Positions 19,717 to 61,331 of a stretch of DNA of 64,000 nucleotides are shown here, piece by piece. Origin of the DNA: Akkermansiaceae bacterium (GTDB lineage: Bacteria > Verrucomicrobiota > Verrucomicrobiia > Verrucomicrobiales > Akkermansiaceae); NCBI GenBank assembly GCA_903878115.1, contig CAIRGO010000263.1, positions 28,991-92,990 on the forward strand, in the 5' to 3' direction. Every line of letters begins with the position of its first letter. Position 1 is the stretch's first letter. The position numbers and the translations under genes are program-made. The notes beneath the pieces were generated by a model, which ran no database searches, was not told where the DNA came from, and saw only the letters and a program-made list of their open reading frames with translations.

Positions 19717-19727
19717 CCATTATTCCT

Positions 19728-21176
19728 ATGAAAACACCTCCGCCAAGCTACGATCAATTGATGGGCTTTACTCGTCGTCATTTCCTCGGTTCATCAGGCC
19801 TAGGGCTGGGTGCTATGGCGCTCTCGCACTTGATGGGCAGTGGGAATGCCAGTGCTTCTACTACTGGTGTGCTCGGTGCGCCGCATCATTTTGCGAAAGT
19901 CAAACGTGTGATCTATCTGTTTCAAGCAGGTGGCCCTTCCCATTTGGAAACGTTCGATTTCAAGCCATTGCTCCGCGCGGGACACGGTAAAGCACTGCCA
20001 AAAGAAGTGATCGGTAATCAACGATTATCGACGATGAGTGGCAATCAAAGTTTGCTGCCAATGGCGGGATCATTTGCCAATTTCACCAAAAATGGAAAAT
20101 CAGGAATGGAGATTTCTGACACCTTACCCTACACCAAACAAATCGCTGATGAGATTTGTTTGATCAACACGATGCATACCGAAGCGATCAATCATGATCC
20201 TGCGATTACCTTTTTTTGTTCCGGGAACCAAGTGCCAGGTCGTCCGTCGATGGGGTCTTGGGCATCGTACGGACTTGGTAGTCTTAATCAAAATTTACCT
20301 TCTTTCATTGTATTGGTATCAAAAAATTCTTCACGCGATCAACCTCTCTACACGAGACTCTGGGGGTCTGGTTTTTTGCCGAGCGAACATCAAGGTGTTC
20401 AGTTTCGTGCGGGAAAAGAGCCCGTGCTATATCTAACAAATCCCGAAGGCGTTTCTCCGCATGTCCGTCGTGATATGTTAGATGCACTTGGGAAATTAAA
20501 TCTATCCGAAGCAGAAAAAGAGCTCGATCCTGAAATCAATGCGCGCATAGCTCAAGCGGAGATGGCATTTCGCATGCAGACCAGTGTACCTGATGCTACT
20601 GATCTATCGGATGAAACGGAGGAAACGTTTAACCTCTATGGCCCTGATTCTAAAACGCCTGGTACTTATGCGGCGAATTGTTTGTTAGCCCGGCGCTTGA
20701 TCGAGCGTGATGTGCGCTTTGTGCAATTGTTCCATCAAGGATGGGATCAACATGGTGATGTGGTGGGAGGCATTACGCGTCAATGTAAGCAGACCGACCA
20801 AGCATCGGCCGCGCTGGTCATCGATCTAAAACGTCGCGGTTTGTTAGAAGATACTCTCGTTGTTTGGGGTGGTGAATTTGGCCGCACTGCCTATTCACAA
20901 GGGAAAATGAGTGCCAATAATTATGGTCGTGATCATCATCCACGCTGCTTCAGCATTTGGCTAGCGGGTGGGGGAGTGAAAGGCGGGCTCACCCATGGCA
21001 AGACCGATGACTACGGTTACAACATTCTCGATGGCGGCGTTCATGTGCACGATTTGCACGCGACGATGCTGCATTTGATGGGGGTGGAGCACGAGAAACT
21101 CGTTTACAAATTCCAAGGCCGTTATTTCCGCCTCACCGACATTGCGGGTAATGTGGTGAAGCCGATCCTAGCGTGA
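19728..21176 (+). CDS. DUF1501 domain protein (sulfatase/phosphatase-like fold) with twin-arginine signal
   Basis: TRRHFLGSSGLGLGAMA TAT signal. WGGEFGRT and GRDHHP motifs typical of DUF1501. It starts 11 nt after the PSCyt/DUF1553 gene. Confidence 0.85.
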   Translation: MKTPPPSYDQLMGFTRRHFLGSSGLGLGAMALSHLMGSGNASASTTGVLGAPHHFAKVKRVIYLFQAGGPSHLETFDFKPLLRAGHGKALPKEVIGNQRLSTMSGNQSLLPMAGSFANFTKNGKSGMEISDTLPYTKQIADEICLINTMHTEAINHDPAITFFCSGNQVPGRPSMGSWASYGLGSLNQNLPSFIVLVSKNSSRDQPLYTRLWGSGFLPSEHQGVQFRAGKEPVLYLTNPEGVSPHVRRDMLDALGKLNLSEAEKELDPEINARIAQAEMAFRMQTSVPDATDLSDETEETFNLYGPDSKTPGTYAANCLLARRLIERDVRFVQLFHQGWDQHGDVVGGITRQCKQTDQASAALVIDLKRRGLLEDTLVVWGGEFGRTAYSQGKMSANNYGRDHHPRCFSIWLAGGGVKGGLTHGKTDDYGYNILDGGVHVHDLHATMLHLMGVEHEKLVYKFQGRYFRLTDIAGNVVKPILA

Positions 21177-35294: not shown

Positions 35295-37736
35295 TTACCA
35301 AGCAGCGTGATCGCGTTCGTCGTAAGGCAGCCAGAGTAGGGCTACGAGATTGACTTTTACGTCGGTGCGGGTTGGTTTCAGTGTCTCGGTGCTGAGCATG
35401 ACCGATGCCGGATCAAATGAGGCTGACATGCGGCTGATCTCTTCCTCTGCTTGTTGTTGCATGGTGGCGACTTCTTGTTGAATCGATTCAATTTTATCCT
35501 CGGCGGCATCAACATCGCGGCCTTGTTTGTAAGCGCCTGTCGCCGACGTGATCGCTGATTTCCCTCTGGTGAGAGTGCCGAGATTGATGCCTTTTTTGCC
35601 ACCGAAGAGCGAGCCAAGCACCCCCGTTAGAATGGAAACTCCCGCTTGCATTTTTGCACCGCTGGATTCGGCTTTTTGCTTGGCGAGTTGGCCTTCGGCG
35701 GTGGTCAGGCGTGATTGCGCGGCCTGGAGTTTTTTGGCAATGCTATCGCGGATTTTTGCAACTGCGGCATCACGAGCCTCACGGGCTTTCACCGTCAAAC
35801 GTGCGCGGAACTCGGGCTCCAGTTCACCGAGCTCGGAATAGGTATCGAGCGCTTCACAATAAAAAATATCGGCGCGTTCATTGCGATACAACCATTCCTC
35901 GAAATCTTTGCCCACTTGCTTGTAACCATCTTGATTCATCGCAAAGCCAGGCAATTCGGTGTAGCTAATTGCTTCACTAGGCTTGTTATCTAACGATTCT
36001 GCCTTGAGTGGCGGTGGCACATTGGTTTCCCAGTCGATCGATACTGGTAATATCGGATTAACGAAACGAACGGTGCGAGCGCCTTCCACACCAGCTTTTC
36101 TGGATTGGAAATGCACCTGTCCCACGCGTAGCAAATGCGGGCGATAGGTAAGCCCCTCAGTATCACCCGCATGCGGCACGAATTTTTCCTCTACCCCTGG
36201 TCCTACTAATGGTCGATTGTTGACGGCGGCTTTGGGCGCACTCATGCCGGGCATCGCCATCGGGTTGGCACCAGCTACTACGGAGGTAGTATTATTTTTT
36301 TCAAATGCGGCACGTTTAGGGTCCATCACTGCTTTGATTTGGGTACGGGTGAGCGGGCCACGCAGGTAGCTCATGCACCAACGAACGTGAAAGATCGCGG
36401 GGCCATCGTCGTGCACATTGTTCATCAGGAAAACGCGATTGCCTAACCCTGACAGCAACATTTCCATTTGCTTGCGGTCAAATTTTGCATTTTGTGAACC
36501 TGCGGCTCCCTCGAGTCCATCGAGCACGCGCATTTTATCGCGTTCCGTTTGAAGACGCCCCAAAAACCACGAACCGATGTTGGATAGTGCTTTGTAGTCA
36601 AGATCTACAGGATTTTGCGTGGCGAGCAAACAGCCGAGTCCAAAAGCGCGCGATTGTTTTAGCAAAGTCATCATCGGACGCTTCGATGGTGGATTCGCCG
36701 TCGGTGGCAAGTAGCCGTAAATTTCGTCCATGTAGAGGATCGCGCGCAGCGAGGTTGTTCCGCTTTGGGCGCGCATCCAGCCGAGCATTTGATTGAGCAG
36801 TAGTGAGACGAAGAACATCCGCTCTTGATCACCGAGGTGGGCGATTGAAAAAATGGAAATGCGTGGCTTGCCATCGGGCGCGGTGAGCATTTTTGCGATG
36901 TCTAGCGGCACACCTTCTAACCAAGAAGCAAATCCTGGTGAGGCTAACAGATTATTGAATTTGAGTGCTAAAGTTTGACGATCTTTTTGCCCGTAAAACG
37001 ATTCAATATCGACCACGCCTACTTTGTCGAAGGAAGGTTTTTGAATATGGCGGATCAACGACTCTAAGGTGATGTCTTGCCCGGCCACCCAAGCATTTTG
37101 GAAAATCGCTGAGAGCAAAACAGCTTCATTGCTCTGTGAACTTTCGCCGGTGATGCCGATGAGTGAAAGCAACGAAGCAACAGTGCTTTCGATCCGTTCG
37201 CCTAACAATTCTCCATCATCCATGATCTCAAACGGCGGCACAGCCAGCGAGCTGAGTATCGAAACCGGTATCCCCGCTTTGCTGCCAGGCGTGAAAATAT
37301 TGATGTCCACTTTATCGCGGAACTGTTGCACCCGCTCGGCAGGCTGCCCCCAATCGGCGAGACCTTTTTTCCACATGGCGGCAGTGCTCTCGGCATATTC
37401 GGGCACACTAATACCTTTTTTGGCGGCGTCTTCTTCGTTGATCCATGGCTCGAACTCTTTGCCTGTTAGGCCAGGAAAGGTGAGCAGCAAGTTAGCAATA
37501 TCGCCCTTGGGATCGATGATGATCGCAGGGATATTATCCATCGCAGCTTCTTCTAACATGGCGAGACATAGCCCCGTTTTTCCTGATCCGGTCATGCCGA
37601 GAACCACACCATGGGTGACTAAATCTTTTGAATCATAGAGCACCAAATCATCACCGAGCGTTTTGGTATCGAGATCATAATCGCGCCCCAAATAAAAGCT
37701 GCCCAGTTTTTCGTAGTCGGATACGTTGATGTCCAT
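35295..37736 (-). CDS. HerA/DUF87 (FtsK-HerA superfamily) P-loop ATPase with long coiled-coil C-terminal extension
   Basis: Walker A GMTGSGKTG (37575..37598). DPKGD motif and Walker B-like ILYMDEIYGY. The N-terminal region resembles YjgR/DUF853-type ATPases. The C-terminal ~250 aa is coiled-coil rich. Confidence 0.75.
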   Translation of the reverse strand: MDINVSDYEKLGSFYLGRDYDLDTKTLGDDLVLYDSKDLVTHGVVLGMTGSGKTGLCLAMLEEAAMDNIPAIIIDPKGDIANLLLTFPGLTGKEFEPWINEEDAAKKGISVPEYAESTAAMWKKGLADWGQPAERVQQFRDKVDINIFTPGSKAGIPVSILSSLAVPPFEIMDDGELLGERIESTVASLLSLIGITGESSQSNEAVLLSAIFQNAWVAGQDITLESLIRHIQKPSFDKVGVVDIESFYGQKDRQTLALKFNNLLASPGFASWLEGVPLDIAKMLTAPDGKPRISIFSIAHLGDQERMFFVSLLLNQMLGWMRAQSGTTSLRAILYMDEIYGYLPPTANPPSKRPMMTLLKQSRAFGLGCLLATQNPVDLDYKALSNIGSWFLGRLQTERDKMRVLDGLEGAAGSQNAKFDRKQMEMLLSGLGNRVFLMNNVHDDGPAIFHVRWCMSYLRGPLTRTQIKAVMDPKRAAFEKNNTTSVVAGANPMAMPGMSAPKAAVNNRPLVGPGVEEKFVPHAGDTEGLTYRPHLLRVGQVHFQSRKAGVEGARTVRFVNPILPVSIDWETNVPPPLKAESLDNKPSEAISYTELPGFAMNQDGYKQVGKDFEEWLYRNERADIFYCEALDTYSELGELEPEFRARLTVKAREARDAAVAKIRDSIAKKLQAAQSRLTTAEGQLAKQKAESSGAKMQAGVSILTGVLGSLFGGKKGINLGTLTRGKSAITSATGAYKQGRDVDAAEDKIESIQQEVATMQQQAEEEISRMSASFDPASVMLSTETLKPTRTDVKVNLVALLWLPYDERDHAAW

Positions 37737-49527: not shown

Positions 49528-50958
49528 TCAGCGTTTGTAGAGTTTTTGCGCCTGATCCAAATAACGTGTGATATGATCAGTATTTTGCAACATGCCTTGA
49601 TCGAGGCGTTCTTTGAGTTTGATGTAATCGTCAAATACTCCACTTGTCTCGCGAGCACGGGTGATTTCAAACCAATCAAGGTAATCGCGGGCTCGTTCTG
49701 ATCGATGGGTCATCAATACGCGGCGCTCATCGAGCTCGTTGAGTTTTGTTGCGATATCGAATTTCTTTGCTGGTCTAACGATGGCCCGTAGCACCGCTTG
49801 ATAGTCTAACAATAAAGTGCGATACGAAGGGAAGCACCGATAACTGAGACGCACCAACGATTCCTCTGCATGGCGGATGCCGTAAATGCGGTCGCCCTCG
49901 GGAAGCGCGGCGAGTTCTTGCCATGAATTGATCTCGCGATCTAAGGCAATGCCTTCTTCGTTGCGAAAGCGTAGTTTCAATGCATCCGTTAGTGCGGCTT
50001 CGGTCTCCGCAATGGTCATGACTTCGCTGAGTGAATTGCGTGACTGGATGGCCATTTGCAGAGACCACCATTTTTCTAGGCTTTTGTTAGATAGATTCAG
50101 TCCAGGAAAATGCTTGCGCAGTAACAAGGGCATGTCGCCTCCGAATTTCGCGGATTCAGCGATGAATGAACGAAATGCTTCATGTCCTGATGGTTGCTCG
50201 AGTAACGCCATCATCAGCCCGCCAGCGGATACACGAAATGCGGCCCGCAAGGCGCTATCCGAATCATCGTATTCTTTTTGTGAAATATTGAGTAAATCTT
50301 CCAGATCAAAAAGTCCGCCCGCCTGAAACAACGCCTGATAGAGGCGTCGATCACTATTTCCACGTTTGAAAGCGAGAACTTCTGTTAGGCCTTCTACTAG
50401 CCACGGACGAACGAGCAATCGGTCTTCTAGTGGACCTGGCGGCATAGTGCGCAACGAGCGTTCATAGATCAATGCGGTAAGCACAGCGGAATGAAAGCGA
50501 TCATTTTCAATGCCGCGGGCGAGGTGGACATCGATGCGAAGTTTGAAGCCGTCTTCTCCGTATTGTAAATCCATTGCTAAGGTGCGCTTGGGCAGTGCAT
50601 CACCTTGTTTGCCGTGCATCACAATGATGATCGGAATTTTCCATTGATCTTGCTCTTTCGTGAGTTCCAGAAAATCGCTCTTTGCTTGCTCAGCAAGAAA
50701 GGAAATCGTGCTGCGAATCGAAGCTTCTGCGCCACTGATGTGGAATTGCATGGATCTGCTTTTGGTCACCTCTTGCCCTTTTTCAGAGCGCCATTCATTC
50801 GGTGCTACCGTTGTTGTCGTCGTAGGAGGAGGTGGTGTGGCGGGCACAGGTTTCACCTGCGCTGACAAAAGCGGGCTTAGGAAAATGATCGTTGTGATCA
50901 AATGTTTCACGTCCTGTATCATCGTTGATTTTCGCAGTATGACAAGCGTGCATTTCAC
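49528..50958 (-). CDS. Hypothetical secreted protein (476 aa)
   Basis: Its ATGA start overlaps the aroD stop, suggesting translational coupling. Hydrophobic N-terminus and a PPPPTTTTT linker. No family recognised. Confidence 0.6.
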   Translation of the reverse strand: MKCTLVILRKSTMIQDVKHLITTIIFLSPLLSAQVKPVPATPPPPTTTTTVAPNEWRSEKGQEVTKSRSMQFHISGAEASIRSTISFLAEQAKSDFLELTKEQDQWKIPIIIVMHGKQGDALPKRTLAMDLQYGEDGFKLRIDVHLARGIENDRFHSAVLTALIYERSLRTMPPGPLEDRLLVRPWLVEGLTEVLAFKRGNSDRRLYQALFQAGGLFDLEDLLNISQKEYDDSDSALRAAFRVSAGGLMMALLEQPSGHEAFRSFIAESAKFGGDMPLLLRKHFPGLNLSNKSLEKWWSLQMAIQSRNSLSEVMTIAETEAALTDALKLRFRNEEGIALDREINSWQELAALPEGDRIYGIRHAEESLVRLSYRCFPSYRTLLLDYQAVLRAIVRPAKKFDIATKLNELDERRVLMTHRSERARDYLDWFEITRARETSGVFDDYIKLKERLDQGMLQNTDHITRYLDQAQKLYKR

Positions 50959-51665
50959 GGCTGTGGACTTCGGTGGATCGCCTCACGCAATGCCGCCGCA
51001 GTCCATTGGCCAGGGGCGGTGGGTGCTTGGCCGATGTAACCGTAGTTCAATACGGAACCGGCATGGGCGCAGCGCACGCGCGATTCTGGCGCTAGTGCCC
51101 CCATGCCCATGGAGCTAATAAAATAATCGGTGCTCTGTTGTTGGAAGTGCTCAATCTTTGTGATGTCTGAGTGATCATGCAACATGACAGCGACTTTGAA
51201 AGCCGCAGCTCCCGCGTTGCGTGAGGATTCACGATGGGCGATGAGTTCATTTTCTGCAGGAACTTGGCTAAAATCATGAAATGAACAAATCCATGGAATC
51301 TGCAGTGATCGGCATCGAGCAATCGTGGCAGACATCTCGTCTAGCGAGCGTAGTTCAATATCGATTATCGAGGCGTCATCAATGATTGTGGCGATCAGTT
51401 GATCGCGATCCGTAGCAGAGAGGTCCAATTTTCCACCTTCGTCCTTCCGACGCGCTGTGAATAAAATTGGCATCTTGCGCAGGTGTGACCAAGGTTTTTC
51501 GGCAATGTTCGCGCCATGCGCGAGAAGAATATCAAGCCGAATCTCGATCAAGTCACAGGACTGGGCCACTTCGGAGTCATGAGCGTTTGTTAGATCCGTT
51601 AGGCTGCCAAAGCTGCCAACCACGAGTGGTGTTTGTGGTGAAAAGGTGACAATTGGTGGCTGCAT
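50955..51665 (-). CDS. aroD: Type I 3-dehydroquinate dehydratase
   Basis: CDLIEIRLD motif, SFHDF, and an AAAFKVAVM segment carrying the Schiff-base Lys. The size is typical. Confidence 0.8.
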   Translation of the reverse strand: MQPPIVTFSPQTPLVVGSFGSLTDLTNAHDSEVAQSCDLIEIRLDILLAHGANIAEKPWSHLRKMPILFTARRKDEGGKLDLSATDRDQLIATIIDDASIIDIELRSLDEMSATIARCRSLQIPWICSFHDFSQVPAENELIAHRESSRNAGAAAFKVAVMLHDHSDITKIEHFQQQSTDYFISSMGMGALAPESRVRCAHAGSVLNYGYIGQAPTAPGQWTAAALREAIHRSPQP

Positions 51666-51818
51666 TCGCGGTTAGATTGCTTCGTCCATTACACTTGTCA
51701 ACTCTGCAAATGCGGCGGCTTGTATTTACGTTGCAGAAATATTTTTCGCAAACTGAATTTTTGACTGGTCATCGGTAGGGCGATTTCTTAGTTGTTTAAA
51801 ACTCGCTGACACAATAAT

Positions 51819-52433
51819 ATGAAAAACTACAACTTTTTAAAATCCATTGCCTTCTGCGCATCCCTTGTCTGCGCAGGGCCATCATATTCCGCAGAATCAA
51901 AAGTAGATGCGGAAAAGCCAGTATTTGATGATCTTCTCTCTCCTGAATTTGGAGGATCTGAGCGGAAGCCGTTCAAGCCAAAAGAGTGGTTGGATATTGA
52001 AGCAAAAATCAAAGTGCAACTCTCTCCCGAGCCCAAGTCAAAAACAGCGGATGAGGTCGTGGTGAAGTGGTATGTTGCGGTGAAGAATCCTGAAAAAAGC
52101 GGTTATTTTTTACTGCTGACGAAAACCATCACGCACATCAACGTGCCATTGAATGAGGATATTTATACTTCTATTTACATGAGCCCTGCTTCCATCGTTC
52201 GTCTCACAGGTAACGCAAAAGGTGGCAAAAATGCCGTTGAATATGTCGGTTACGAAGTGCTCGTAGATGGGCAAGTGAAAATTTCTAAAACGGATAAAGG
52301 ACCAGATAACTGGTGGACAAAAAGTTCTGAGAAAATCAGCACTAGCGTTTCGGTGCCATTGCTTTCCAAAAACGAAACTCCTTTTGCAAACATGTGGTGG
52401 GATCGTTACGCGGAAGTGAAGCCTGAAAAATAA
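51819..52433 (+). CDS. Secreted hypothetical protein, first gene of the pilus-like cluster (positional equivalent of Amuc_1102)
   Basis: Signal peptide MKNYNFLKSIAFCASLVCAGPSYSA. It lies 70 nt upstream of the pilM-like gene on the same strand. The equivalence to Amuc_1102 is by gene order only. Confidence 0.55.
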   Translation: MKNYNFLKSIAFCASLVCAGPSYSAESKVDAEKPVFDDLLSPEFGGSERKPFKPKEWLDIEAKIKVQLSPEPKSKTADEVVVKWYVAVKNPEKSGYFLLLTKTITHINVPLNEDIYTSIYMSPASIVRLTGNAKGGKNAVEYVGYEVLVDGQVKISKTDKGPDNWWTKSSEKISTSVSVPLLSKNETPFANMWWDRYAEVKPEK

Positions 52434-52503
52434 TCTCACGCTCAGCTTGCCTCACCATTAAACAACCCTATTTTTTTACACTCGATTTTCCTACAAAACC
52501 ATT

Positions 52504-54375
52504 ATGGCTGAAAACCAGACAACTGTTACTCTCAACATCGGCTCACAGCGCGTATCCATGGCTGTGTTTGAAACTTCTAAGTCTGGAGGACTCGTTCTCA
52601 AGGCATACGAATCCACCGCCCTGCTTGCAGATCCCGCTACTGAATCGGTGCGTTTGCCGCAAACTCGCCTCGCGATCATGGAGCTTGTGCAAAAGCTAAA
52701 AGTCGGCAAAGCGAAAGTTCGCTACGCCGTTTCGGGCCAATCGGTCTTTACTCGTTTTGTTAAATTGCCACCTTTGGACAATGATAACATCGAGCAGTTG
52801 ATCACTTTTGAAGCTCAGCAGCAATTGCCATTCCCGATCGACACCGTTGTCTGGGATTATGAATTGTTAGAAGGTGGATCCGGAGAAAAAGAAGTGGCCC
52901 TAGTCGCCATCAAAGCGGATGCACTTGATGAAATCAATAGCTGCGTCACTAGCTCTGGCATGACCACAGCGGAGATCGATGTCGCGCCGATGGCATTATA
53001 CAATGCGTTTCGTAATGCCTACGCGGACGTAACGGAACCAGTGTTATTGATCGATGTTGGTGCTAAGACGAGCAATTTGCTTTACATGGAAGGCAAGCGT
53101 TTTTTCACACGCAGTATTCCTGTGGGTGGTGCTTCTTTGACCACCGCGATTGCGAAGGAGTATGGCATCAATTTTGCCGAAGCCGAAGGGCAAAAAGTCA
53201 CCAATGGTATCGTCACTCTCGGTGGCGGTCACACTGAGCACCTCGATGAAGCGGTCGCTGCCTTAGGCACTGTCATTCGTAATGCTCTGACCAGACTTCC
53301 TACGGAAATTGCGCGCACTACAAACTTCTATCGTAGTAACCACGGTGGCAATGCGCCTCGCCGCATCGTCCTTGCAGGTGGTGGTGCGAACTTGCCCTAT
53401 GCAAAAGAATTTTTTGAAGAGAAACTCGGCTTGCCAGTTGAGTATTTCAATCCGATGCGCAATGTGATGGTGGGCAAAAATGTTTCGCCAGAAGTGATTC
53501 AAAAAGAAGCGCACATGATGGGCGAACTCATCGGCCTCGGACTGCGAGGTGTCGGGAAATCTTCGATCAATATCGATCTCGTGCCTGCCAGTGTGGAATC
53601 AGATCGTGCTTCTGAAAAACGTCGCCCGATCTTGATTGCTTCCGCCGCGTTGCTGATTGCTGGTTTCGGTGTTTTTGCTTACTTTAAAAATTCTGCCGCA
53701 TCGGCAGCCGAAGAAAAATTAGCAGAAGTCACCGCCAAAAAAGACGAACTCTCTGTTACCGCAAAACCGATTCAGAAATTGCTAAAAACGGAAGAAGCGA
53801 TTCAAAAAATTGCAAAATCTTACGTCGCCTGCAAGGAAGATCAGGCGTTCTGGATCGGCATGTTGGCTGATTTAAAAACGAACTTCGCCAGCGATAACGA
53901 GTGGATTACTGATTTGGAGCCACTGGCGAATTATGACCCGTCCAAGCCCGCCGACGCAAAAGGAAATGGCGAGAGCATCGTGAAAGAAGAGATCGGAGCT
54001 ACCTATGGAACTTCTTCACTGAATACTGCGAAAGAGGCCAAACCTGAAGAGGGCGCCGCACCAAGAGTTCCCGTTCGACCAAGCCAACCAGTCGTTGCTG
54101 CTGCTCCTAGCGGCGCTGCCAATGCTGTGCGTATTAGAGGATTATGGCGCGATAACGTCGACAAGCAAAACGTCGTCAACAAGCTCATCAAAGCATTGCG
54201 TGATAGCGATTCACCCTACTTTAATTTCATGACCAAAGATGCTGAGGGTAAAGAATTGCCACTTAAAGACGAACAAATTATCAAAAAGTTACAAGCCACA
54301 GCAGAAGAAGATGCTGAATATGCTTGGCCGTATGAAATCGTTATCCCCTTGTCTCGTCCAGTGTTATCCCGCTAA
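52504..54375 (+). CDS. pilM: PilM-like actin-fold ATPase fused to a TM/PilN-like segment and a long C-terminal extension
   Basis: The N-terminal ~350 aa matches PilM (LNIGSQRVSMAVFE, FEAQQQLPFPIDTVVWDYELL, IDVAPMALYNAF, LLIDVGAKTSNL, LAGGGANLPY). It is followed by the TM helix ILIASAALLIAGFGVFAYF, a coiled-coil, and a Pro/Ala-rich tail. Confidence 0.8.
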   Translation: MAENQTTVTLNIGSQRVSMAVFETSKSGGLVLKAYESTALLADPATESVRLPQTRLAIMELVQKLKVGKAKVRYAVSGQSVFTRFVKLPPLDNDNIEQLITFEAQQQLPFPIDTVVWDYELLEGGSGEKEVALVAIKADALDEINSCVTSSGMTTAEIDVAPMALYNAFRNAYADVTEPVLLIDVGAKTSNLLYMEGKRFFTRSIPVGGASLTTAIAKEYGINFAEAEGQKVTNGIVTLGGGHTEHLDEAVAALGTVIRNALTRLPTEIARTTNFYRSNHGGNAPRRIVLAGGGANLPYAKEFFEEKLGLPVEYFNPMRNVMVGKNVSPEVIQKEAHMMGELIGLGLRGVGKSSINIDLVPASVESDRASEKRRPILIASAALLIAGFGVFAYFKNSAASAAEEKLAEVTAKKDELSVTAKPIQKLLKTEEAIQKIAKSYVACKEDQAFWIGMLADLKTNFASDNEWITDLEPLANYDPSKPADAKGNGESIVKEEIGATYGTSSLNTAKEAKPEEGAAPRVPVRPSQPVVAAAPSGAANAVRIRGLWRDNVDKQNVVNKLIKALRDSDSPYFNFMTKDAEGKELPLKDEQIIKKLQATAEEDAEYAWPYEIVIPLSRPVLSR

Positions 54376-54414
54376 ATCCCCCCTAACAAAAATCAATTAT
54401 TTTTTCTATTTATT

Positions 54415-55404
54415 ATGACAGCTAAGGACAAAAGTTTTATCGGCATTCTGGCAGGAGTCACCGTGGTCTGCGTGGGCGGCTTGTATTATTGGGCCAGTCA
54501 GAGTGACTCCCGTTACGATGCAGCTAAAGAAGGTTACACCAATGTGACGAGCGAAATAGCAGAGATGGAAGTTATTCCACTATTTCCTACGGAAAAAAAC
54601 AAAGTTGAGAAGCAAAAAGCGCTCGATGACTACAAGGCTGATGCCACGCAACTGGCAGAGAAATTAAAAGCATTTCGCCCAAAAGAGATCAAGAATACTG
54701 ATCCGCAAACATTCACCGATGCCTTGGTGAAAATGGCTGCTGACACGAAAGCTGCCTACACTGCACAAGGCTTACTTGTTGATGCCATCCCTAAAGGCTT
54801 TTATCTTGGATTCGAGTCCTACACCAATACCCCTGCTCAACAAGGAGCCACGGGAGTTCTTGCTTATGAGTTAGCCGCTATCGCAGAAATGCATGGCGTT
54901 CTGGCATCCGCCAAGCCTGCAAAGTTGTTGAATTTTTATCGTCAATCATTAGGTGAGGAAACAGGCAAGGCTTATACCGCTGATAAAGGTGCTGCCTATC
55001 GCGCGCTGCCAGTGGAGATTGCGTTCAGCGGGTCAGAGAAATCACTGCGCGGATTTATCAATGGACTGAACTCATCAAAAAAATATTTTTATCTCATTCG
55101 CAGTCTGCGCATTATGAATGAAAAACAAACTGGTCCGAAAGCATCAGATGTGCAGTTCGATACTGCTAAGGCCGCCGCTCCAGGTGGTGCCGTTGGTGGC
55201 GGGGTGTTTGGCGAAGGTTCTGCATTCGTGCTTCCTTCCGAGGAGCCTGCCGCACCTGCTGGTGATAAACCAGCGGAAGTTAAACCAGAAGAAAAATCAA
55301 AAAGCACGGAGCAAATTCTTAAACAAGTGCTCGGTAGTGAAAACATTGAAGTGTTTTTACGCATCGATATCTTGCTCTTTGAGGGAGATGTAGTCATTCC
55401 TTAA
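54415..55404 (+). CDS. Amuc_1100-like (PilO-like) membrane-anchored protein
   Basis: N-terminal TM helix, coiled-coil, and the segments LGFESYTNTPAQQGATGVLAYELAAI, LPVEIAFSGSEKSLRGFINGLN and YFYLIRSLRIMNEK. There is a Pro/Ala-rich linker and a C-terminal VFLRIDILLF. These parallel the Akkermansia Amuc_1100 sequence as I remember it. Confidence 0.7.
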   Translation: MTAKDKSFIGILAGVTVVCVGGLYYWASQSDSRYDAAKEGYTNVTSEIAEMEVIPLFPTEKNKVEKQKALDDYKADATQLAEKLKAFRPKEIKNTDPQTFTDALVKMAADTKAAYTAQGLLVDAIPKGFYLGFESYTNTPAQQGATGVLAYELAAIAEMHGVLASAKPAKLLNFYRQSLGEETGKAYTADKGAAYRALPVEIAFSGSEKSLRGFINGLNSSKKYFYLIRSLRIMNEKQTGPKASDVQFDTAKAAAPGGAVGGGVFGEGSAFVLPSEEPAAPAGDKPAEVKPEEKSKSTEQILKQVLGSENIEVFLRIDILLFEGDVVIP

Positions 55405-55439
55405 TTTACCTAACAAATTTCTAACACAATATTTCATTT

Positions 55440-56534
55440 ATGAAAAAAAATCACGATAAAGCACTTCTCGCCGGCGCCCTAGTGGTGGCTGCTGGCATCG
55501 CTTACCTCGGCTATGCAAAAACGACTTCGGTTGAGGAAGAATTTGTATTTTCTAGCTCAGGTTCTGGCAAAAATGACACCTCTGTTGCTGGTGCGGTTGT
55601 TCTCAAAGAGACTCTCGCCACAGTGACAACGCCACTTCAGTTGGAACAGGCTGAGGTTGGTGACAGCAAACGTCCCGTGGACCTTTTTGTCGGTGTAGCA
55701 CTTTTTGCGAAAAAGCCTGCTGGTGGCGGCACGGCGGTGCCAGTTGATTTGATCAAGGGCGAAATGGTTCACCCACCAATTCCTAATAGCTGGTGGTTGG
55801 ATAACGGCATTGATCCCGGGTTTGCAGATTCTCCAGCGCGTGATGCTGACAATGATGGCTTTTCTAACCAAGAAGAGTTTGAAGCCAAAACCAATCCTGC
55901 GGATGCGAAGTCTTTTCCTGGCCTGATAACGAAATTAGCCTTCGTTAAAGATGAATCCATCGGTTTCTTCTTGTGGTTTTCAAGTGCCCTTGGTCCAGAA
56001 AAATACCAATTCAAAATCACAGCTTTGCCACCTGTTTTTGAAAGCGCTAATCCTGCACAGCAAGAGGCGTTTCTCAGCCGATCGGATCTTGTCTATGTTC
56101 GCACTAAGGATTACATCGGCTCTAGTTCGAATATTTTTACCGAAGGCTTCGCCAAGGATCGTTTTCTCTTAAAATCGGTGGTTTCCAAAGAAGTGACGAA
56201 TGCGAGAACCAATCTAACAACCACCAATGAATTCGCAACAATCGAAGATTTGAGTGAAAACAAAAAAGGGACCACTTTTGAAATTCCGAAAACACCAAAC
56301 TCCGCCGCGCGCCCTGGCACTGTTCGTTATGATCGCACTGCGGTGTTGAACTTGAATGCTGTTGGTGAGTCAGGCAAAGATTTCAAAGTGAAGGAAAATA
56401 CCTCTTTCTCTCTGCCTGATGGCAAGCCAGAAAAAAATTATCTTCTCAAATCAATCACCCGCGACAGCATCACTGTAGAATACAAAGATGCCTCGGGAGC
56501 AACTCAAACCATCGAAATTAAGAAAAAATCATAA
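55440..56534 (+). CDS. N-terminally anchored hypothetical protein with DxDxDG calcium-binding-like motif (positional equivalent of Amuc_1099)
   Basis: TM helix ALLAGALVVAAGIAYLGY. DADNDGFSNQEE (55842..55877) resembles a thrombospondin type 3 / EF-like Ca loop. The gene sits between the Amuc_1100-like gene and the secretin. Confidence 0.55.
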   Translation: MKKNHDKALLAGALVVAAGIAYLGYAKTTSVEEEFVFSSSGSGKNDTSVAGAVVLKETLATVTTPLQLEQAEVGDSKRPVDLFVGVALFAKKPAGGGTAVPVDLIKGEMVHPPIPNSWWLDNGIDPGFADSPARDADNDGFSNQEEFEAKTNPADAKSFPGLITKLAFVKDESIGFFLWFSSALGPEKYQFKITALPPVFESANPAQQEAFLSRSDLVYVRTKDYIGSSSNIFTEGFAKDRFLLKSVVSKEVTNARTNLTTTNEFATIEDLSENKKGTTFEIPKTPNSAARPGTVRYDRTAVLNLNAVGESGKDFKVKENTSFSLPDGKPEKNYLLKSITRDSITVEYKDASGATQTIEIKKKS

Positions 56535-56542
56535 TAATTTCC

Positions 56543-59236
56543 ATGAATCGAAAATTTCTCTTTTCAAATTACAAGAATAAGCCAATAACAACTCCGACAC
56601 ACATGCAAAAAATACCAGCACTTACTCCAAGTCGCACTGCCGCCGCTCTGATGGCCGTAGCCGCCTTCATGCCCGTGACTATCACTCACGCAGGCGAAAG
56701 CTCTACCGGAATGTCAGGACTCGCTCAGCGCGAAGCCATTCGTCGCCAACAAGCAGTTGCCGAGGCCGATCAACTTCTTATCGATGGTCGCACAGCCTAT
56801 GCTGCTGCTGACTACGAAAAAGCAGTAACCAAATACAAACAAGCACTTGCAGTTTTGCCTGTTGCTCCCGTATTGGAAGATCGTCGCGCATCGATCAAAC
56901 AGCATCTTGTTGATGGCTCTGTCGCTCTCGCTGCAAAGTATCGTAAAGTCGGCAAATACACCGAAGCTCGTGGTTTGTTAGAGAATGTTCTTTCTCCAGA
57001 AGTTGATGCCAACAATCCAATGGCAAAACGTGAACTCGCTTATCTCGACGACCCGATCCGCACGAACCCTGCGTTGACTTATGAGCACACACAAAACGTG
57101 GACGTTGTTCGTCGCGGACTGTACATGGGTGAAGGTCATTACAACTTGGGCAAATATGACGATGCGAAAAAAGAATTCGAAAAAGTTCTTCGTGTTGACC
57201 CTTATAACAAAGCTGCTCGCCGCTGGATGGAGCGTATTGCTGGTGCTAAATCTGATTACTATCGTTCCGCCTACGATCAAATGCGCGCTGAATTGCTCAT
57301 GGAAGTGGATAAAGCATGGGAACTAGCCGTGCCGATGGATGCTCCTGACGCAACGAACAACAATGTTTTTGACCCTACGATCAATTCTGGCTCTGCGCTG
57401 ATCCAAGAAAAACTTCGCAGCATCATCATTCCTGTGATCGATTTTGAAGATACCTCAGTGGAAGAAGCTGTTGATTTCCTTCGTCAGCGTTCACGTGAGT
57501 TGGATAACACCACCACTGATCCTGCCATGAAGGGCATTAACTTCACGATCCGCAAGCCTCGCTCTGCTGGTGCTCCTGCTGCTGGCGCTGCCGCAGATGC
57601 TCTGGATGCCGCAGCCGCAGCATTGCCTGTTGCTGATCCCGGTGCATTGCGCGTTAGGGAATTGAAACTCACCAACGTGCCGATCGCTACTGCATTGAAA
57701 TACATTTGCGATAACACACGTCTCAAATATAAGATTGATGACTTTGCCGTAACACTCGTTCCCGCTTCGGAAGATGGTGAGGACATCGTGACACGCACTT
57801 TCCAAGTGCCACCTGACTTTATTTCTGCACTCAGCGATGGTGGAGCCGGTGATGCTCCCGCCACAACCGATCCTTTCGGTGCCGCTCCGGCAGCTGGTGG
57901 AGTTACTGGCCTGAAGCCACGTGCTGGTGTGCAAGAATTGTTGAAAAACAAAGGTGTGCCGTTTCCGGATAACGCCTCTGCTAACTACATTCCTGCTAAC
58001 AGTTCTTTGGTCGTGCGTAACACACCAAGCAACATGGACTTGATCGAGCAGATCATCATGGCCATGCAAGCTGGCGCTCCTAAGCAAATCAAAATCATGA
58101 CCAAGTTTGTGGAAATCAGCCAAGAGAACAGCGAGGAGCTGGGCTTTGACTGGATCATCACTCCTTTTGGTCTTGGCAGTGATTTGTTTGCTGGTGGCGG
58201 CACGATTGGTAGCGGCACAGCTCGCGGCAATACTGATTTCATTAACCCAGTCAATGGTGTTACGATTCCAGGGATTCCTGCTGCACCTGGCGCAAATGTT
58301 TCTAACATCGTTACCGGCGGCACGCGCTCTGGTTCGAATGCGATCACTCGTGATAGCATCAATTCGATTCTGAACAATCCTAACCGCACTGCTCAGAACA
58401 GCTCGGTGGCTCCTGGTATTCTTAGCCTCACTGGTCTCTTCACCGATGGCCAAGTGCAAATGATCATGCGCGGACTCTCGCAGAAAAAAGGTGCTGACAT
58501 CATGACTGCTCCTAGCATCATGGCTCGCTCCGGTCAAAAAGCTACGATCGAGATCATTCGGGAATTTATCTATCCTACCGAATACGAACCCCCCGAAATT
58601 CCACAACAATTCGGCGGTAACAACAACCAAGGTGGCGGCATCGGCGGCGGTGGCGGCGGCGGCGGCGGAGCATTCCCCGTTACTCCTGCGACTCCTACCG
58701 CGTTCGAGCCTCGTAACACAGGTGTCACTCTTGAAATCGAACCAACTCTTGGTGCGAACGATTCTGTGATCGACCTGCGTTTTGCTCCTGAAATCGTAGA
58801 GTTTGAAGGATTTATCAACTACGGAAGTCCGATTCAGTCGTCTTCTTCCGATGCATTGGGCAATCCTACCACGATCACGATTACCGAGAACCGCATTGAA
58901 ATGCCTGTATTCTCCGTGCGTCGGGTTTCGACTGCACTTTCCATCTATGACGGTCACACTGTGGCAGTTGGTGGTTTGATGCGTGAGGACGTGCAAAACG
59001 TAGAAGACAAAGTGCCAATTTTGGGAGATATTCCTTTGATTGGTCGTCTGTTCCAAACCAAAGCAGAAAACCGCATCAAGAGCAATTTGATCATCTTCGT
59101 TACCGCGCAGATCATTGATGCCACTGGTCGTGTTATGAAAGATAGCACGGCACCTGCAGGCACTCCTGCTTCGTTGGTTCCTGGCGGAGTTGGTGGTTTG
59201 GATGGCGGACCTAGTCTGCTGCCTCCTCCACAATAA
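56543..59236 (+). CDS. Secretin (GspD/PilQ family) with N-terminal TPR-like region
   Basis: C-terminal secretin signature VPILGDIPLIGRLFQ...NLIIFVTAQII, plus ADIMTAPSIMARSGQKATIEI. The N-terminal ~250 aa has TPR-like repeats (YEKAVTKYKQAL, YDDAKKEFEKVLRVDPYN). An alternative start is at 56603. Confidence 0.88.
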   Translation: MNRKFLFSNYKNKPITTPTHMQKIPALTPSRTAAALMAVAAFMPVTITHAGESSTGMSGLAQREAIRRQQAVAEADQLLIDGRTAYAAADYEKAVTKYKQALAVLPVAPVLEDRRASIKQHLVDGSVALAAKYRKVGKYTEARGLLENVLSPEVDANNPMAKRELAYLDDPIRTNPALTYEHTQNVDVVRRGLYMGEGHYNLGKYDDAKKEFEKVLRVDPYNKAARRWMERIAGAKSDYYRSAYDQMRAELLMEVDKAWELAVPMDAPDATNNNVFDPTINSGSALIQEKLRSIIIPVIDFEDTSVEEAVDFLRQRSRELDNTTTDPAMKGINFTIRKPRSAGAPAAGAAADALDAAAAALPVADPGALRVRELKLTNVPIATALKYICDNTRLKYKIDDFAVTLVPASEDGEDIVTRTFQVPPDFISALSDGGAGDAPATTDPFGAAPAAGGVTGLKPRAGVQELLKNKGVPFPDNASANYIPANSSLVVRNTPSNMDLIEQIIMAMQAGAPKQIKIMTKFVEISQENSEELGFDWIITPFGLGSDLFAGGGTIGSGTARGNTDFINPVNGVTIPGIPAAPGANVSNIVTGGTRSGSNAITRDSINSILNNPNRTAQNSSVAPGILSLTGLFTDGQVQMIMRGLSQKKGADIMTAPSIMARSGQKATIEIIREFIYPTEYEPPEIPQQFGGNNNQGGGIGGGGGGGGGAFPVTPATPTAFEPRNTGVTLEIEPTLGANDSVIDLRFAPEIVEFEGFINYGSPIQSSSSDALGNPTTITITENRIEMPVFSVRRVSTALSIYDGHTVAVGGLMREDVQNVEDKVPILGDIPLIGRLFQTKAENRIKSNLIIFVTAQIIDATGRVMKDSTAPAGTPASLVPGGVGGLDGGPSLLPPPQ
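58631..58669 (+). repeat. GGY triplet repeat encoding GGGIGGGGGGGGG inside the secretin
   Basis: ggt ggc ggc atc ggc ggc ggt ggc ggc ggc ggc ggc gga. This includes five perfect consecutive GGC units (58652..58666). Confidence 0.9.
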
Positions 59237-59260
59237 GCATTAGCTAACAATATTTTTTCA

Positions 59261-59291
59261 ACGGGCGGATGAAAATCCGCCCGTTTTTTTG
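59261..59291 (+). terminator. Rho-independent terminator after the secretin gene
   Basis: ACGGGCGGA - tgaaaa - TCCGCCCGT, followed by TTTTTTT. Confidence 0.8.
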
Positions 59292-59343
59292 TCACTCGTG
59301 TTGGCAGATGGAATCCGCCGCCACCATCATACGCTGCTCAAAA

Positions 59344-59814
59344 CTACGATGCTCTGCTATGGCGAATCACTGTAAAATCTGGATTTTCTAGGAGAATCTC
59401 TTGCTCGGGAAAGTCGTGCTCAAACAAGGGAAAATGGGTGTCTCCCGGATATTCTTGTTTGATATGTGTCACAATTAATGCGGTCATTTGTTCCATAAAT
59501 GCCCGATAGATTTCCGCACCGCCGATGATGTAGATCAATGGTTCAGCAGCTGCAATAGTATTCAGTTCTTGAGTTTGATGAATCACTTCGACGCCTGGAT
59601 GACTCCAGTTTTCATCGCGGGTGAGGATGATGTTGCGACGTTTCGGTAGGGGGCGACCGATCGAATCAAAGGTCTTACGCCCCATCACGATCGGATGACC
59701 AGAGGTAGTGGTTTTAAAAAAGGCGAGGTCGGCTGGTAAGTGCCAGGGAAGAGTGCCGCCAGCGCCGATAATACGTGCTGGGGTCATCGCCACGATGCCA
59801 ATGAGCTGGTTCAT
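59344..59814 (-). CDS. folA: Dihydrofolate reductase
   Basis: IVAMTPARIIGAGGTLPWHLPADLAFFKTTTSGHPIVMGRKTFDSIGRPLPKRRNIILTR is a canonical DHFR N-terminus. It lies downstream of thyA. Confidence 0.9.
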   Translation of the reverse strand: MNQLIGIVAMTPARIIGAGGTLPWHLPADLAFFKTTTSGHPIVMGRKTFDSIGRPLPKRRNIILTRDENWSHPGVEVIHQTQELNTIAAAEPLIYIIGGAEIYRAFMEQMTALIVTHIKQEYPGDTHFPLFEHDFPEQEILLENPDFTVIRHSRAS

Positions 59815-59844
59815 TTTGTTAGATAAAAATAGCAGGGAAAAATG

Positions 59845-60657
59845 TTAGACGGAAATCGGAGCCTTGATCGCGGGGTGGGGATCATAGCCATCAAGCCGGA
59901 AATGCTCGAAGCGGAAACCGTCAATTTCTTTCACTGTCGGATCGATCCACATGGCGGGCAGTGGTCGTGGTTCGCGGCTGAGTTGTTCTTTCGCCTGTGC
60001 TAGGTGATTTTGGTAAAGGTGTAGATCGCCGAAGCTGTGGACGAAATCTCTCGCCTCGTAATCGCAGACCTGAGCAATCATCAATGTTAGCAACGCATAA
60101 GACGCTACATTAAAAGGCACGCCAAGAAATAGATCTGCACTGCGCTGATAGAGTTGGCAGGAAAGGCCAGCCTTGCCGCCATCACGCGGTTCATGCACAA
60201 AAAACTGGAACAAACAGTGGCACGGTGGCAGCGCCATTTGATTCACATCTGCTACATTCCATGCGGAGACGATGTGCCGACGCGAGGCGGGTCGATGTTT
60301 CAAGTCATCAATCAGTCGAGCGAGTTGATCGATCACTCGTCCGTCGGGGCATTGCCATGCGCGCCATTGTCGGCCATAGACAGGTCCGAGGTTACCTTTT
60401 TCGTCCGCCCACTCGTCCCAGATACTAACGCCATTTTCTTTGAGATACGCGATGTTGGTATTGCCTTGAATGAACCACAGCAATTCATGAATGATCGAGC
60501 GCAGATGAAGTTTTTTGGTCGTGAGACAAGGAAACCCCTCACGGAGATCATAGCGAGCTTGGCGACCAAACACCGCGATGGTGCCAGTGCCCGTGCGGTC
60601 CGAGCGGGTTTCTCCATTCTCAAGAACATCGCGCAACAAATTCAAGTATGTCTGCAT
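59845..60657 (-). CDS. thyA: Thymidylate synthase (ThyA)
   Basis: [40 protein letters not shown] (catalytic Cys) and [16 protein letters not shown]. The start was trimmed to the ATG at 60657 (270 aa). The ORF-track frame stays open up to 61104, but that part is not ThyA-like. Confidence 0.92.
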
Positions 60658-60935
60658 GCGCCGCACCATGGCGCGTTTTGGCAGCTGATGCAATGTTTCT
60701 TGTGAGCAGGCCACCACGTTTTTTGAAAAGATTTCGCGACCGATAATTTCCGTCCTAAGATTTTGTGAATTTGAGTAATGACGTTGCGCTACATCACCGC
60801 AGTTCACCCAAGTCGATCGGCAAGGAATGAGAGCCAACATGAAAACCGAGAAAGGAAGATAAAGTAGAGGCAAGCGCGCATGAATCTCGCTTGGTCGGTG
60901 AAACGATTGCAAAGCGGTATTGTATAACGCTTTTT

Positions 60936-61331
60936 TTATTTGGGCATCAGATCGATGCCGAATTTGCGCAAGACGAAAACGGTGAGCCAGAATAGCGCCA
61001 CTGTCATCAGGCAGTTGGCGAGAAGTGCAGGCCAAAATCCCCAGCCATTGCGCAGCAAATAGGGTAGCACCAAAAACATGGGTAGGGTGGGGATCACAAA
61101 CCAAAACGTGCCTTCAGCGTGGTTGGCAATTCGTGTAGTCGATTGCTTTTCTGTATGCATCCAGATCATCGCTAGCAACGAGGTGAATGGCAACGCAATC
61201 AGCAATGCAGAGACACGGTCGTTGATTAATTGCACCTTGGTGACAATGACAATGATGACGGCCGTGAGCAGGATTTTCACGATGTCCATGCCAGAAAATG
61301 TAATGAGTTGATGCCAAGGAACTTTGTTCAT
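60936..61331 (-). CDS. Small integral membrane protein (4 TM; possibly DUF3147-like)
   Basis: Hydrophobic 131-aa ORF. The family call is weak. An alternative start is MDIVKI at 61289. Confidence 0.5.

Follow-up and report, generated by a model that had tools for sequence, protein, structure and literature searches.

The DNA described here is a stretch of 64,000 nucleotides (nt) from an Akkermansiaceae bacterium (GenBank assembly GCA_903878115.1, contig CAIRGO010000263.1, positions 28,991 to 92,990 of the forward strand), referred to below as the window. Its G+C content is ~48%, and the host is an uncultured Akkermansiaceae species, probably of fresh-water origin. Five genes on the + strand, designated P1 to P5 in their order along the window (Table 1), form a cluster that is the ortholog of the Amuc_1102-Amuc_1098 operon of Akkermansia muciniphila, comprising the MUL2 genes and a PilQ-like secretin. 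The identification rests on NCBIfam equivalog models named for the A. muciniphila genes and applied with their curated cut-offs: P1 scores 247 bits against Amuc_1102_rel (cut-off 55), P2 872 bits against Amuc_1101_fam (cut-off 650), P3 288 bits against Amuc_1100_fam (cut-off 180), P4 324 bits against Amuc_1099_fam (cut-off 50) and P5 1181 bits against Amuc_1098_fam (cut-off 750). Newer dedicated Pfam families, PF28178 'Amuc_1102' and PF28028 'Amuc_1100', are attached to P1 and P3 on public gene calls, and independent public calls on near-identical contigs agree with the open reading frames (ORFs) used here. In the A. muciniphila operon the five families recur, likewise on a single strand and without change of order. 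An earlier sequence-only reading of the window had described five same-strand genes, separated by gaps of 8-70 nt and followed by a strong terminator, as colinear with Amuc_1102 to Amuc_1098. In the ORF list of the window the five genes lie exactly where that reading had placed them, the gaps P1-P2, P2-P3, P3-P4 and P4-P5 measure 70, 39, 35 and 8 nt, the terminator is present, and the similarity to the A. muciniphila proteins is strong, with all five over their cut-offs in the proposed order. Its labels of a PilM-like protein fused to a transmembrane/PilN-like segment, an anchored 364-amino-acid (aa) protein and a TPR-secretin are each borne out below. While the identification holds, the novelty claimed for the locus was overstated: the locus, the MUL2 name and the synteny in aquatic relatives are published, and the system already has a name, curated entries in NCBIfam and Pfam, and a survey across its family. 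The present result is an identification, not a discovery.

The cluster is conserved as a unit. A pattern scan of GTDB species representatives yielded 80 Akkermansiaceae/Luteolibacter loci, which were read with flanks of ±10 kb. The gene order is the same in all 80 wherever the contig reaches (P1 in 80, P2 in 80, P3 in 79, P4 in 73 and P5 in 69), and the missing P3, P4 and P5 genes coincide with contigs that are short or truncated; the neighbourhood conservation that the sequence-only reading had proposed as a check is thus found in 80 species-level genomes. The aroD gene is divergent upstream in 76 of the 80 loci and also in a distant relative (L081), while the downstream neighbours are not conserved. 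In that relative, where P3 is 29% identical, the arrangement is helicase, aroD (- strand), Amuc_1102-type gene, PilM-type gene, Amuc_1100-type gene, a gene for a 352-aa protein, TPR-secretin gene, coaE and rho. Median identities to the window are 59% for P1, 58% for P2, 39% for P3, 42% for P4 and 63% for P5; by these values the PilM-like protein and the secretin are constrained, and P3 and P4 evolve fast. The closest species-representative genomes are metagenome-assembled genomes (MAGs) of the Akkermansiaceae/Luteolibacter type, many of them with lake or river sample names, with P2 identities of 55-77%, none of which belongs to the same species. Two peculiarities of the MAG set were recorded. 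The MAG CAZREM01 ('binchicken_co298_301') holds two full copies of the cluster, L002 on contig 46 and L014 on contig 45, with 76% and 61% identity to the window and upstream neighbours in common; a bin in which two species are mixed seems likelier here than a pair of paralogous loci. Seven MAGs (L003, L004, L007, L009, L015, L021 and L024) are titled 'Akkermansia muciniphila', a species label that looks wrong, their PilM-like protein being just 59-77% identical to that of the window. Their companions in the set carry the labels Akkermansiaceae or Verrucomicrobiales, in part with sample names from lakes or rivers.

P1 matches the crystal structure of Amuc_1102 (7DSZ) by sequence at an E-value (E) of 7e-34. 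Its N-terminus is of the Sec type. The same holds for each of 78 orthologs, not one of which carries a class III (prepilin) motif; judged by these N-termini, the Amuc_1102 family is never a prepilin. P2 matches Pfam PilM_2 over residues 10-349 (E 5e-35) and scores 169 bits against the TIGR01175 pilM model (cut-off 133), and its best match in the PDB is PilM of Myxococcus xanthus (3JC8, E 8e-39), with further matches to 2YCH and 5EOX. Directly after the PilM domain the P2 residues 'SSINIDLVP' align with 'MARINLLP' of the PilN peptide in 5EOU, an engineered chimera of Pseudomonas aeruginosa PilM with the N-terminal peptide of PilN. The INLLP motif is the segment by which PilN docks into PilM. 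INIDLVP is identical in 75 of 81 P2 orthologs, and the motif columns are invariant in the alignment of orthologs. A single transmembrane helix lies ~15 residues past the docking motif, and the remaining ~230 residues are periplasmic. By its PilM domain, docking motif and helix, P2 is a naturally occurring fusion of PilM and PilN, and its architecture is also GspL-like. Pfam searches at E up to 10 found no PilN, PilO, PilP or Gsp family in mature P1, in the C-terminus or the linker plus transmembrane helix of P2, or in the periplasmic region of P3.

P3 matches the Amuc_1100 structures 6KNY, 6LAD and 6LAF at E 6e-15 by sequence and 8e-33 with a profile; it is a distant relative of the A. muciniphila protein, with ~18-21% identity over the fold alignment. 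A transmembrane helix occupies residues 7-25, and the AlphaFold2 model (predicted local distance difference test, pLDDT, 75.8) consists of long helices and an alpha/beta core. A Foldseek search with this model returned Amuc_1100 at E ~1e-11 and TMt 0.8-0.9 (0.89-0.90 for 6KNY/6LAF). The next matches are PilO structures, namely 2RJZ (probability 0.95, TMt 0.56), 5UVR (0.93) and 3JC8_Oa (0.60), and PulM (8AB1) stands lower (probability 0.14, TMt 0.54); the E-values of the PilO matches are non-significant, at 0.1-0.5 (0.1-5 with PulM). Besides Amuc_1100, PilO provides the only matches above a probability of 0.5. The model and the topology suggest that proteins of the Amuc_1100 family have PilO topology and a PilO-like fold.

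P4 has a transmembrane helix at residues 8-26, and no lipobox was seen in its N-terminus. Residues 135-156 (nt 55842-55907) form a TSP3-type calcium-binding motif, which scores 21.6 bits against Pfam TSP3_bac, below the cut-off; its residues D135, D137, D139, G140 and E146 (DxDxDG…E) are invariant. The AlphaFold2 model (pLDDT 79.6, >90 in the C-terminal half) contains a confident beta domain at residues ~166-364. Of the structure predictions that the sequence-only reading had called for, that of P3 upheld the relation to Amuc_1100, and that of full-length P4 returned no significant PDB match. A profile of 35 P4 orthologs found nothing meaningful among PDB sequences. Similarity to PilP or GspC was detected neither by Pfam (beta domain at E up to 10) nor by the PDB profile or the full-length fold search, and no PDZ or HR domain was detected. 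In a profile search the family comprises ~130 representative clusters at E ≤ 1e-30, and many of the weaker matches arise solely through the TSP3 repeats of giant proteins. The P4-type beta domain also ends vWF_A-VWA-YfbK_C proteins of ~950 aa (P0478 and P0480) and stands at the C-terminus of several unannotated proteins of 450-575 aa; since it recurs on proteins of these kinds, it is a mobile module, although its companions point to no particular function.

P5 carries a TPR region at residues ~82-232 (Pfam TPR_2), weak N0/N1-like matches at 371-407 and 471-505 (STN, Secretin_N) and a secretin domain at 645-859 (nt 58475-59119; Pfam Secretin, E 6e-31). No AMIN domain was found in P5, and TPR repeats stand in its place. 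Against the curated secretin models it scores 118 bits for GspD (TIGR02517, cut-off 351), 91 bits for PilQ (TIGR02515, cut-off 284) and 99 bits for MshL, also below cut-off, and the HofQ models are far below their cut-offs. The type IV pilus and type II secretion secretins of the PDB match P5 over the C-terminal ~70 residues only. A glycine-rich run, GGNNNQGGGIGGGGGGGGG, lies inside the secretin domain (window 58613-58669, residues 691-709), and similar G-rich runs of 10-21 residues are present in 23 of 56 P5 orthologs. The ORF of P5 as listed begins at 56543; the start is probably Met21 instead, because the orthologs begin with 'MQKIPAL…', because what follows Met21 resembles a signal peptide, and because residue 36 is where the alignment to the NCBIfam model begins. 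With this start the last gap of the operon would be 68 nt, not 8.

The operon is bounded on both sides, since it ends in a terminator and is flanked by housekeeping genes on the opposite strand. The terminator hairpin (59260-59285) has an 11-bp stem with 7 G-C pairs, is followed by a T-run, and lies 24 nt past the stop codon of P5. Of 55 related loci, 38 have a comparable hairpin with a T-run behind the secretin gene, and the orthologous hairpin of one of them (L005, 16798-16823) shows a compensatory C-G to T-A change in the stem (GGGCGGA/TCCGCCC versus GGGTGGA/TCCACCC). The 3' neighbours, folA and thyA, are on the opposite strand from 59344 onwards, and the 5' neighbour aroD is on the opposite strand as well, all by Pfam assignment. 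The + strand of 51666..51818 contains no convincing sigma-70 consensus site, and an Rfam scan of 51000-60000 gave no match.

Table 1. Features of the Amuc_1102-Amuc_1098-type cluster and its surroundings, in window coordinates
Feature	Position	Strand	Description
P1	51819..52433	+	204 aa, Amuc_1102 family (MUL2A), Sec-exported
P2	52504..54375	+	623 aa, Amuc_1101 family (MUL2B), PilM-PilN fusion
PilN-type docking motif INIDLVP, P2 residues 355-361	53566..53586	+	alignment to 5EOU chimera; ortholog conservation
P2 transmembrane helix, residues 376-394	53629..53685	+	Kyte-Doolittle 19-aa window score 2.29
P3	54415..55404	+	329 aa, Amuc_1100 family; N-terminal transmembrane anchor, long helices, PilO-like alpha/beta core
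P4	55440..56534	+	364 aa, Amuc_1099 family; N-terminal transmembrane anchor, TSP3-type motif, C-terminal beta domain
P5	56543..59236	+	897 aa, Amuc_1098 family; TPR region and secretin domain; probable true start 56603
Intrinsic terminator	59260..59292	+	AACGGGCGGATGAAAATCCGCCCGTT then TTTTTTT
Divergent intergenic region, 153 bp	51666..51818	.	presumed operon promoter region, from gene layout
aroD (type I 3-dehydroquinase)	50955..51665	-	Pfam DHquinase_I, E 2e-34

Genes for a motor, a platform or pilins were not found near the cluster. Neither a prepilin-type N-terminus nor a GspE/PilB Walker A motif occurs in any window ORF of ≥40 aa, and Pfam searches of 40 other large window ORFs returned zinc and iron-sulfur transport/assembly, BamA, accA, PVC-type cytochrome-domain proteins, a sulfatase and similar functions. 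Neither the window nor the ~6 kb past its 3' end contains a pilin, PilB/PilT, PilC or PilD gene; the latter region, read from contigs 99.4-99.6% identical to the window, holds a TonB-dependent receptor, an S8 peptidase and a large MBG_2/YDG-domain protein. The near-identical sequences are ENA metagenome scaffolds of the GROS21-1 series and a contig of the NCBI MAG GCA_947458685.1; as the window departs from them by about 0.5%, an exact look-up of its sulfatase gave no record. The sequence-only reading had noted that the window encodes no prepilin, PilB/PilT, PilC or prepilin peptidase, and the ORF motif and Pfam scans confirm this. It had also held that pilA, pilB or pilC immediately outside the window in the same operon would make this an ordinary pilMNOPQ locus; no such genes follow in the ~6 kb beyond the 3' end. 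An 813-aa protein encoded ~14 kb from the cluster (35295-37736, - strand) is an unassigned protein of P-loop type, its sole Pfam match being a weak one to HerA/DUF87 at the N-terminus.

In the flanks of the 80 loci, a PilB/GspE-type ATPase is encoded at L005 and a PilT/PilU-family ATPase, over cut-off, at L051. True prepilin N-termini occur at L015 and L017 only, the L017 protein being GspG-like, and most prepilin-motif matches are false positives in a DinG-like helicase (AVAVAEAL). Pilus-type genes are present in just 2-4 of the 80 flanks, and the two ATPase genes, over 80 stretches of 20 kb, are estimated to be about what chance placement would give in genomes that hold two or three. The flank genes indicate that the lineage has motors and prepilins; they are no demonstration of linkage to the cluster. 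The ATPase of L005, 3.4 kb downstream of the secretin gene, was considered as a member of the operon and rejected: the conserved terminator and unrelated ORFs lie between, and no other locus shows this arrangement.

It is considered fairly probable that the cluster encodes one half of a type IV pilus-like machine, namely its alignment proteins and its secretin. The machine would serve in the capture or uptake of polymers, and its motor and pilins would be encoded elsewhere. P2 would hold its actin-fold PilM domain on the cytoplasmic side, in one chain with a PilN-type docking motif, a transmembrane helix and a periplasmic domain. P3 would be the bitopic, PilO-like partner, and P4 would be a third bitopic protein that takes the PilP/GspC position in the gene order, bearing a TSP3 motif for calcium binding and a distinctive beta domain. 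P5 would be the outer-membrane secretin with a fused TPR region, and P1 a lineage-specific Sec-exported protein. The PilM domain would couple to an ATPase of the PilB/PilT type and a platform, and prepilin-type subunits would likewise be encoded elsewhere in the genome; coupling at the cytoplasmic face is proposed because the PilM domain and the docking motif are strongly constrained. By analogy with the mul2 mutants of A. muciniphila, the machine may capture and take up complex glycans.

The type IVa PilM-PilN-PilO-PilP-PilQ systems of M. xanthus, P. aeruginosa and Thermus thermophilus are a close point of comparison. They have in common with the cluster a PilM domain, an INLLP-type motif followed by a transmembrane helix, a secretin domain and the gene order M-N-O-(P)-Q; P3 is bitopic like PilO, and its fold is suggestive of PilO. 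Separation from the pilin and ATPase genes is shared as well, pilMNOPQ operons unlinked from pilA and pilBCD being the norm in type IVa pilus systems. In those systems PilM has the actin-like fold of FtsA and MreB, PilN and PilO are paralogs with a coiled coil and a ferredoxin-like domain, and the subcomplex operates together with a major pilin of prepilin type, PilB/PilT ATPases, the PilC platform and the PilD peptidase. The differences are that PilM and PilN form one chain here, that no PilN, PilO or PilP domain is recognisable by sequence, that PilP is an inner-membrane lipoprotein whose beta-sandwich (HR) domain binds the N0 domain of the secretin whereas P4, in which no lipobox was seen, carries a TSP3 motif and a distinct beta domain, that PilQ has AMIN where P5 has TPR and stays below the PilQ cut-off, and that the first gene of the cluster has no type IVa counterpart. 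Competence (DNA-uptake) pili with PilQ/HofQ secretins are type IV pilus-like machines in which the secretin is used for the inward passage of a polymer. The likeness to the cluster is one of functional analogy only, since the substrate is DNA there and would be a glycan or glycoprotein here. Inward passage of this sort is what has been proposed for MUL2 in the uptake of mucin or glycans.

Several observations weigh against reading the cluster as half of a type IV pilus-like machine. P1, the conserved first gene, encodes a non-prepilin in all 78 orthologs, and a fibre made of P1 would require neither a prepilin peptidase nor an extension ATPase. The periplasmic region of P2, P3 and P4 have no sequence-level link to the PilN, PilO, PilP, GspL, GspM or GspC families (Pfam, E up to 10), and paralogy of the PilN/PilO type between the periplasmic regions of P2 and P3 was tried and gave no signal (hhalign probability ~1%). 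The full-length P4 model has no Foldseek match in the PDB at E ≤ 0.001, all TM-scores being low, and a profile of 32 P3 orthologs retrieved only Amuc_1100 itself from the PDB sequences, with the fold matches to PilO falling short of significance. P5 is under both the PilQ and the GspD equivalog cut-offs, with TPR in the position of AMIN. In addition, Amuc_1100 was reported at the outer membrane or cell surface in A. muciniphila (PMC5332112), which is an awkward fit to P3, predicted from its transmembrane anchor and PilO-like fold to be an inner-membrane protein facing the periplasm.

These observations were set against other explanations of the same genes. Chance adjacency of five unrelated ORFs, or an artefact of gene calling, has practically no probability, being excluded by five curated family matches far over cut-off and by an order kept in 80 genomes and a distant relative; the public calls agree, and nothing was found in favour. 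Another explanation, considered unlikely, is a self-contained secretin machine that dispenses with the type IV pilus ATPase, platform and prepilin and acts as a static conduit or one coupled to the proton-motive force; it may show or export the Amuc_1102-type protein as a non-canonical 'pilus', or pass polymers through the outer membrane. The five-gene unit is tightly conserved and ends at a terminator, and no pilus gene is a conserved neighbour across the 80 genomes; P1 invariably comes first and has a Sec-type N-terminus, in no case that of a prepilin; P3, P4 and P5 have diverged past recognition by sequence or below the PilO, PilP and PilQ cut-offs; and in PMC13174399 the MUL2 locus is described as conserved in aquatic lineages without MUL1. 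All of this is what such a machine would lead one to expect. However, the PilM-like protein is the best conserved after the secretin (median 58% versus 39-42% for P3 and P4) and P2 keeps its docking motif, which would be hard to explain without cytoplasmic coupling; relatives encode PilB/GspE-type and PilT-type ATPases as well as prepilins, and unlinked pilMNOPQ genes are ordinary in type IVa pili. A bolder form, an autonomous machine derived from type IV pilus alignment proteins that lacks prepilins and secretion ATPases, displays or polymerises the Sec-exported Amuc_1102-family subunit by means of a PilM-PilN fusion, a PilO-like protein, a lineage-specific calcium-binding protein and a TPR-secretin, and imports complex glycans across the outer membrane, is given only a slim chance; if true, it would mean a polymer-import role for a secretin, conserved across the Verrucomicrobiales.

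It is similarly improbable that the cluster is the outer half of a type II secretion system (GspL/GspM/GspC/GspD-like) which exports glycan-degrading enzymes, the growth defect on mucin then being one of failed secretion. Such a system would account for the GspL architecture of P2, the bitopic P3 and P4 in the manner of GspM and GspC, and the rank of GspD as the best curated non-self model for P5 (118 bits, against 91 for PilQ); PulM is among the fold matches of P3 at its low probability, and the only annotatable prepilin in the flanks is GspG-like. Yet the cytoplasmic domain of P2 exceeds the curated pilM cut-off and gave no match to a GspL family, P5 falls far short of the GspD cut-off, P4 shows no PDZ or HR domain, all Gsp models remain far below their cut-offs, and no gspE-K genes are adjacent; moreover, the papers that cite Davey 2023 describe, in their accounts of that work, failed uptake or transport of mucin and not failed secretion. 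The sequence-only reading had left a choice between a remote sub-assembly of a type IV pilus and a distinct machine, and the evidence leans toward the sub-assembly.

Some features of the surroundings stand apart from the cluster. The aroD gene is a conserved divergent neighbour that does not belong to the machine functionally. Its transcript probably also covers the gene of a 476-aa protein (49528-50958, - strand), because the two overlap by 4 nt at the aroD start; this protein has no Pfam family and is detectable in 11 of 80 related loci. The thyA ORF (59845-61104, - strand; 419 aa) begins with TTG, and its N-terminal extension is too long to be plausible. This ORF overlaps a membrane-protein ORF of 131 aa (60936-61331, - strand; PF28289), which is called separately on one public contig, and a start at 60669 would give a ThyA of 274 aa. 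At 16444-21176 (+ strand) the window also encodes a 1090-aa PSCyt1/PSCyt2/PSD1 protein with Laminin_G_3, followed by a DUF1501 protein, a pair typical of Planctomycetes-Verrucomicrobia.

The locus family has been described mainly in A. muciniphila. Ottman 2017 (PMC5332112) found the five proteins of the locus to be abundant in an outer-membrane-enriched fraction and referred to a pili-like or type IV pili gene cluster; the latter name recurs in later reviews, in which Amuc_1098 is a PilQ. According to PMC13174399, which cites Davey 2023, Amuc_1102 and Amuc_1101 were named MUL2A and MUL2B and tied to mucin transport and intracellular accumulation, and A. muciniphila relies on the mul genes to transport and process mucin; PMC12928651, citing the same work, states that MUL is required for mucin transport at the outer membrane. 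The survey in the ISME J of 2026 (PMC13174399) found MUL2A and MUL2B in 266 of 352 non-muciniphila Akkermansiaceae genomes, reported a synteny that takes in the secretin gene and the adjacent 3-dehydroquinate dehydratase gene and is kept both in aquatic Akkermansiaceae and in other Verrucomicrobiales, and showed that fluorescent fucoidan accumulates in aquatic Akkermansiaceae. The MUL2 loci drawn there have a divergent aroD neighbour as in the window and carry coaE and rho neighbours as in L081, whereas folA and thyA lie downstream here. The window differs from the A. muciniphila locus in coming from another organism, and no MUL1-type locus is visible in it. The mul2 phenotype is known for A. 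muciniphila only; for the present organism, a role in glycan uptake would follow by analogy.

The window adds one more ortholog, from an environmental Akkermansiaceae population already represented in public MAGs, and it is no more tractable than the published loci. Its specialist value lies in the PilM-PilN fusion with a kept motif, the PilO-like Amuc_1100 family and the non-prepilin Amuc_1102, points which may already be published. These structural readings sharpen, and do not answer, the questions of the machine's energy source and of the cargo that passes the secretin. The locus family matters in that Amuc_1100 is a much-studied host-active protein and the mul2 genes are needed for mucin foraging by A. 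muciniphila, and the same module may underlie particle attachment and glycan uptake in its aquatic relatives.

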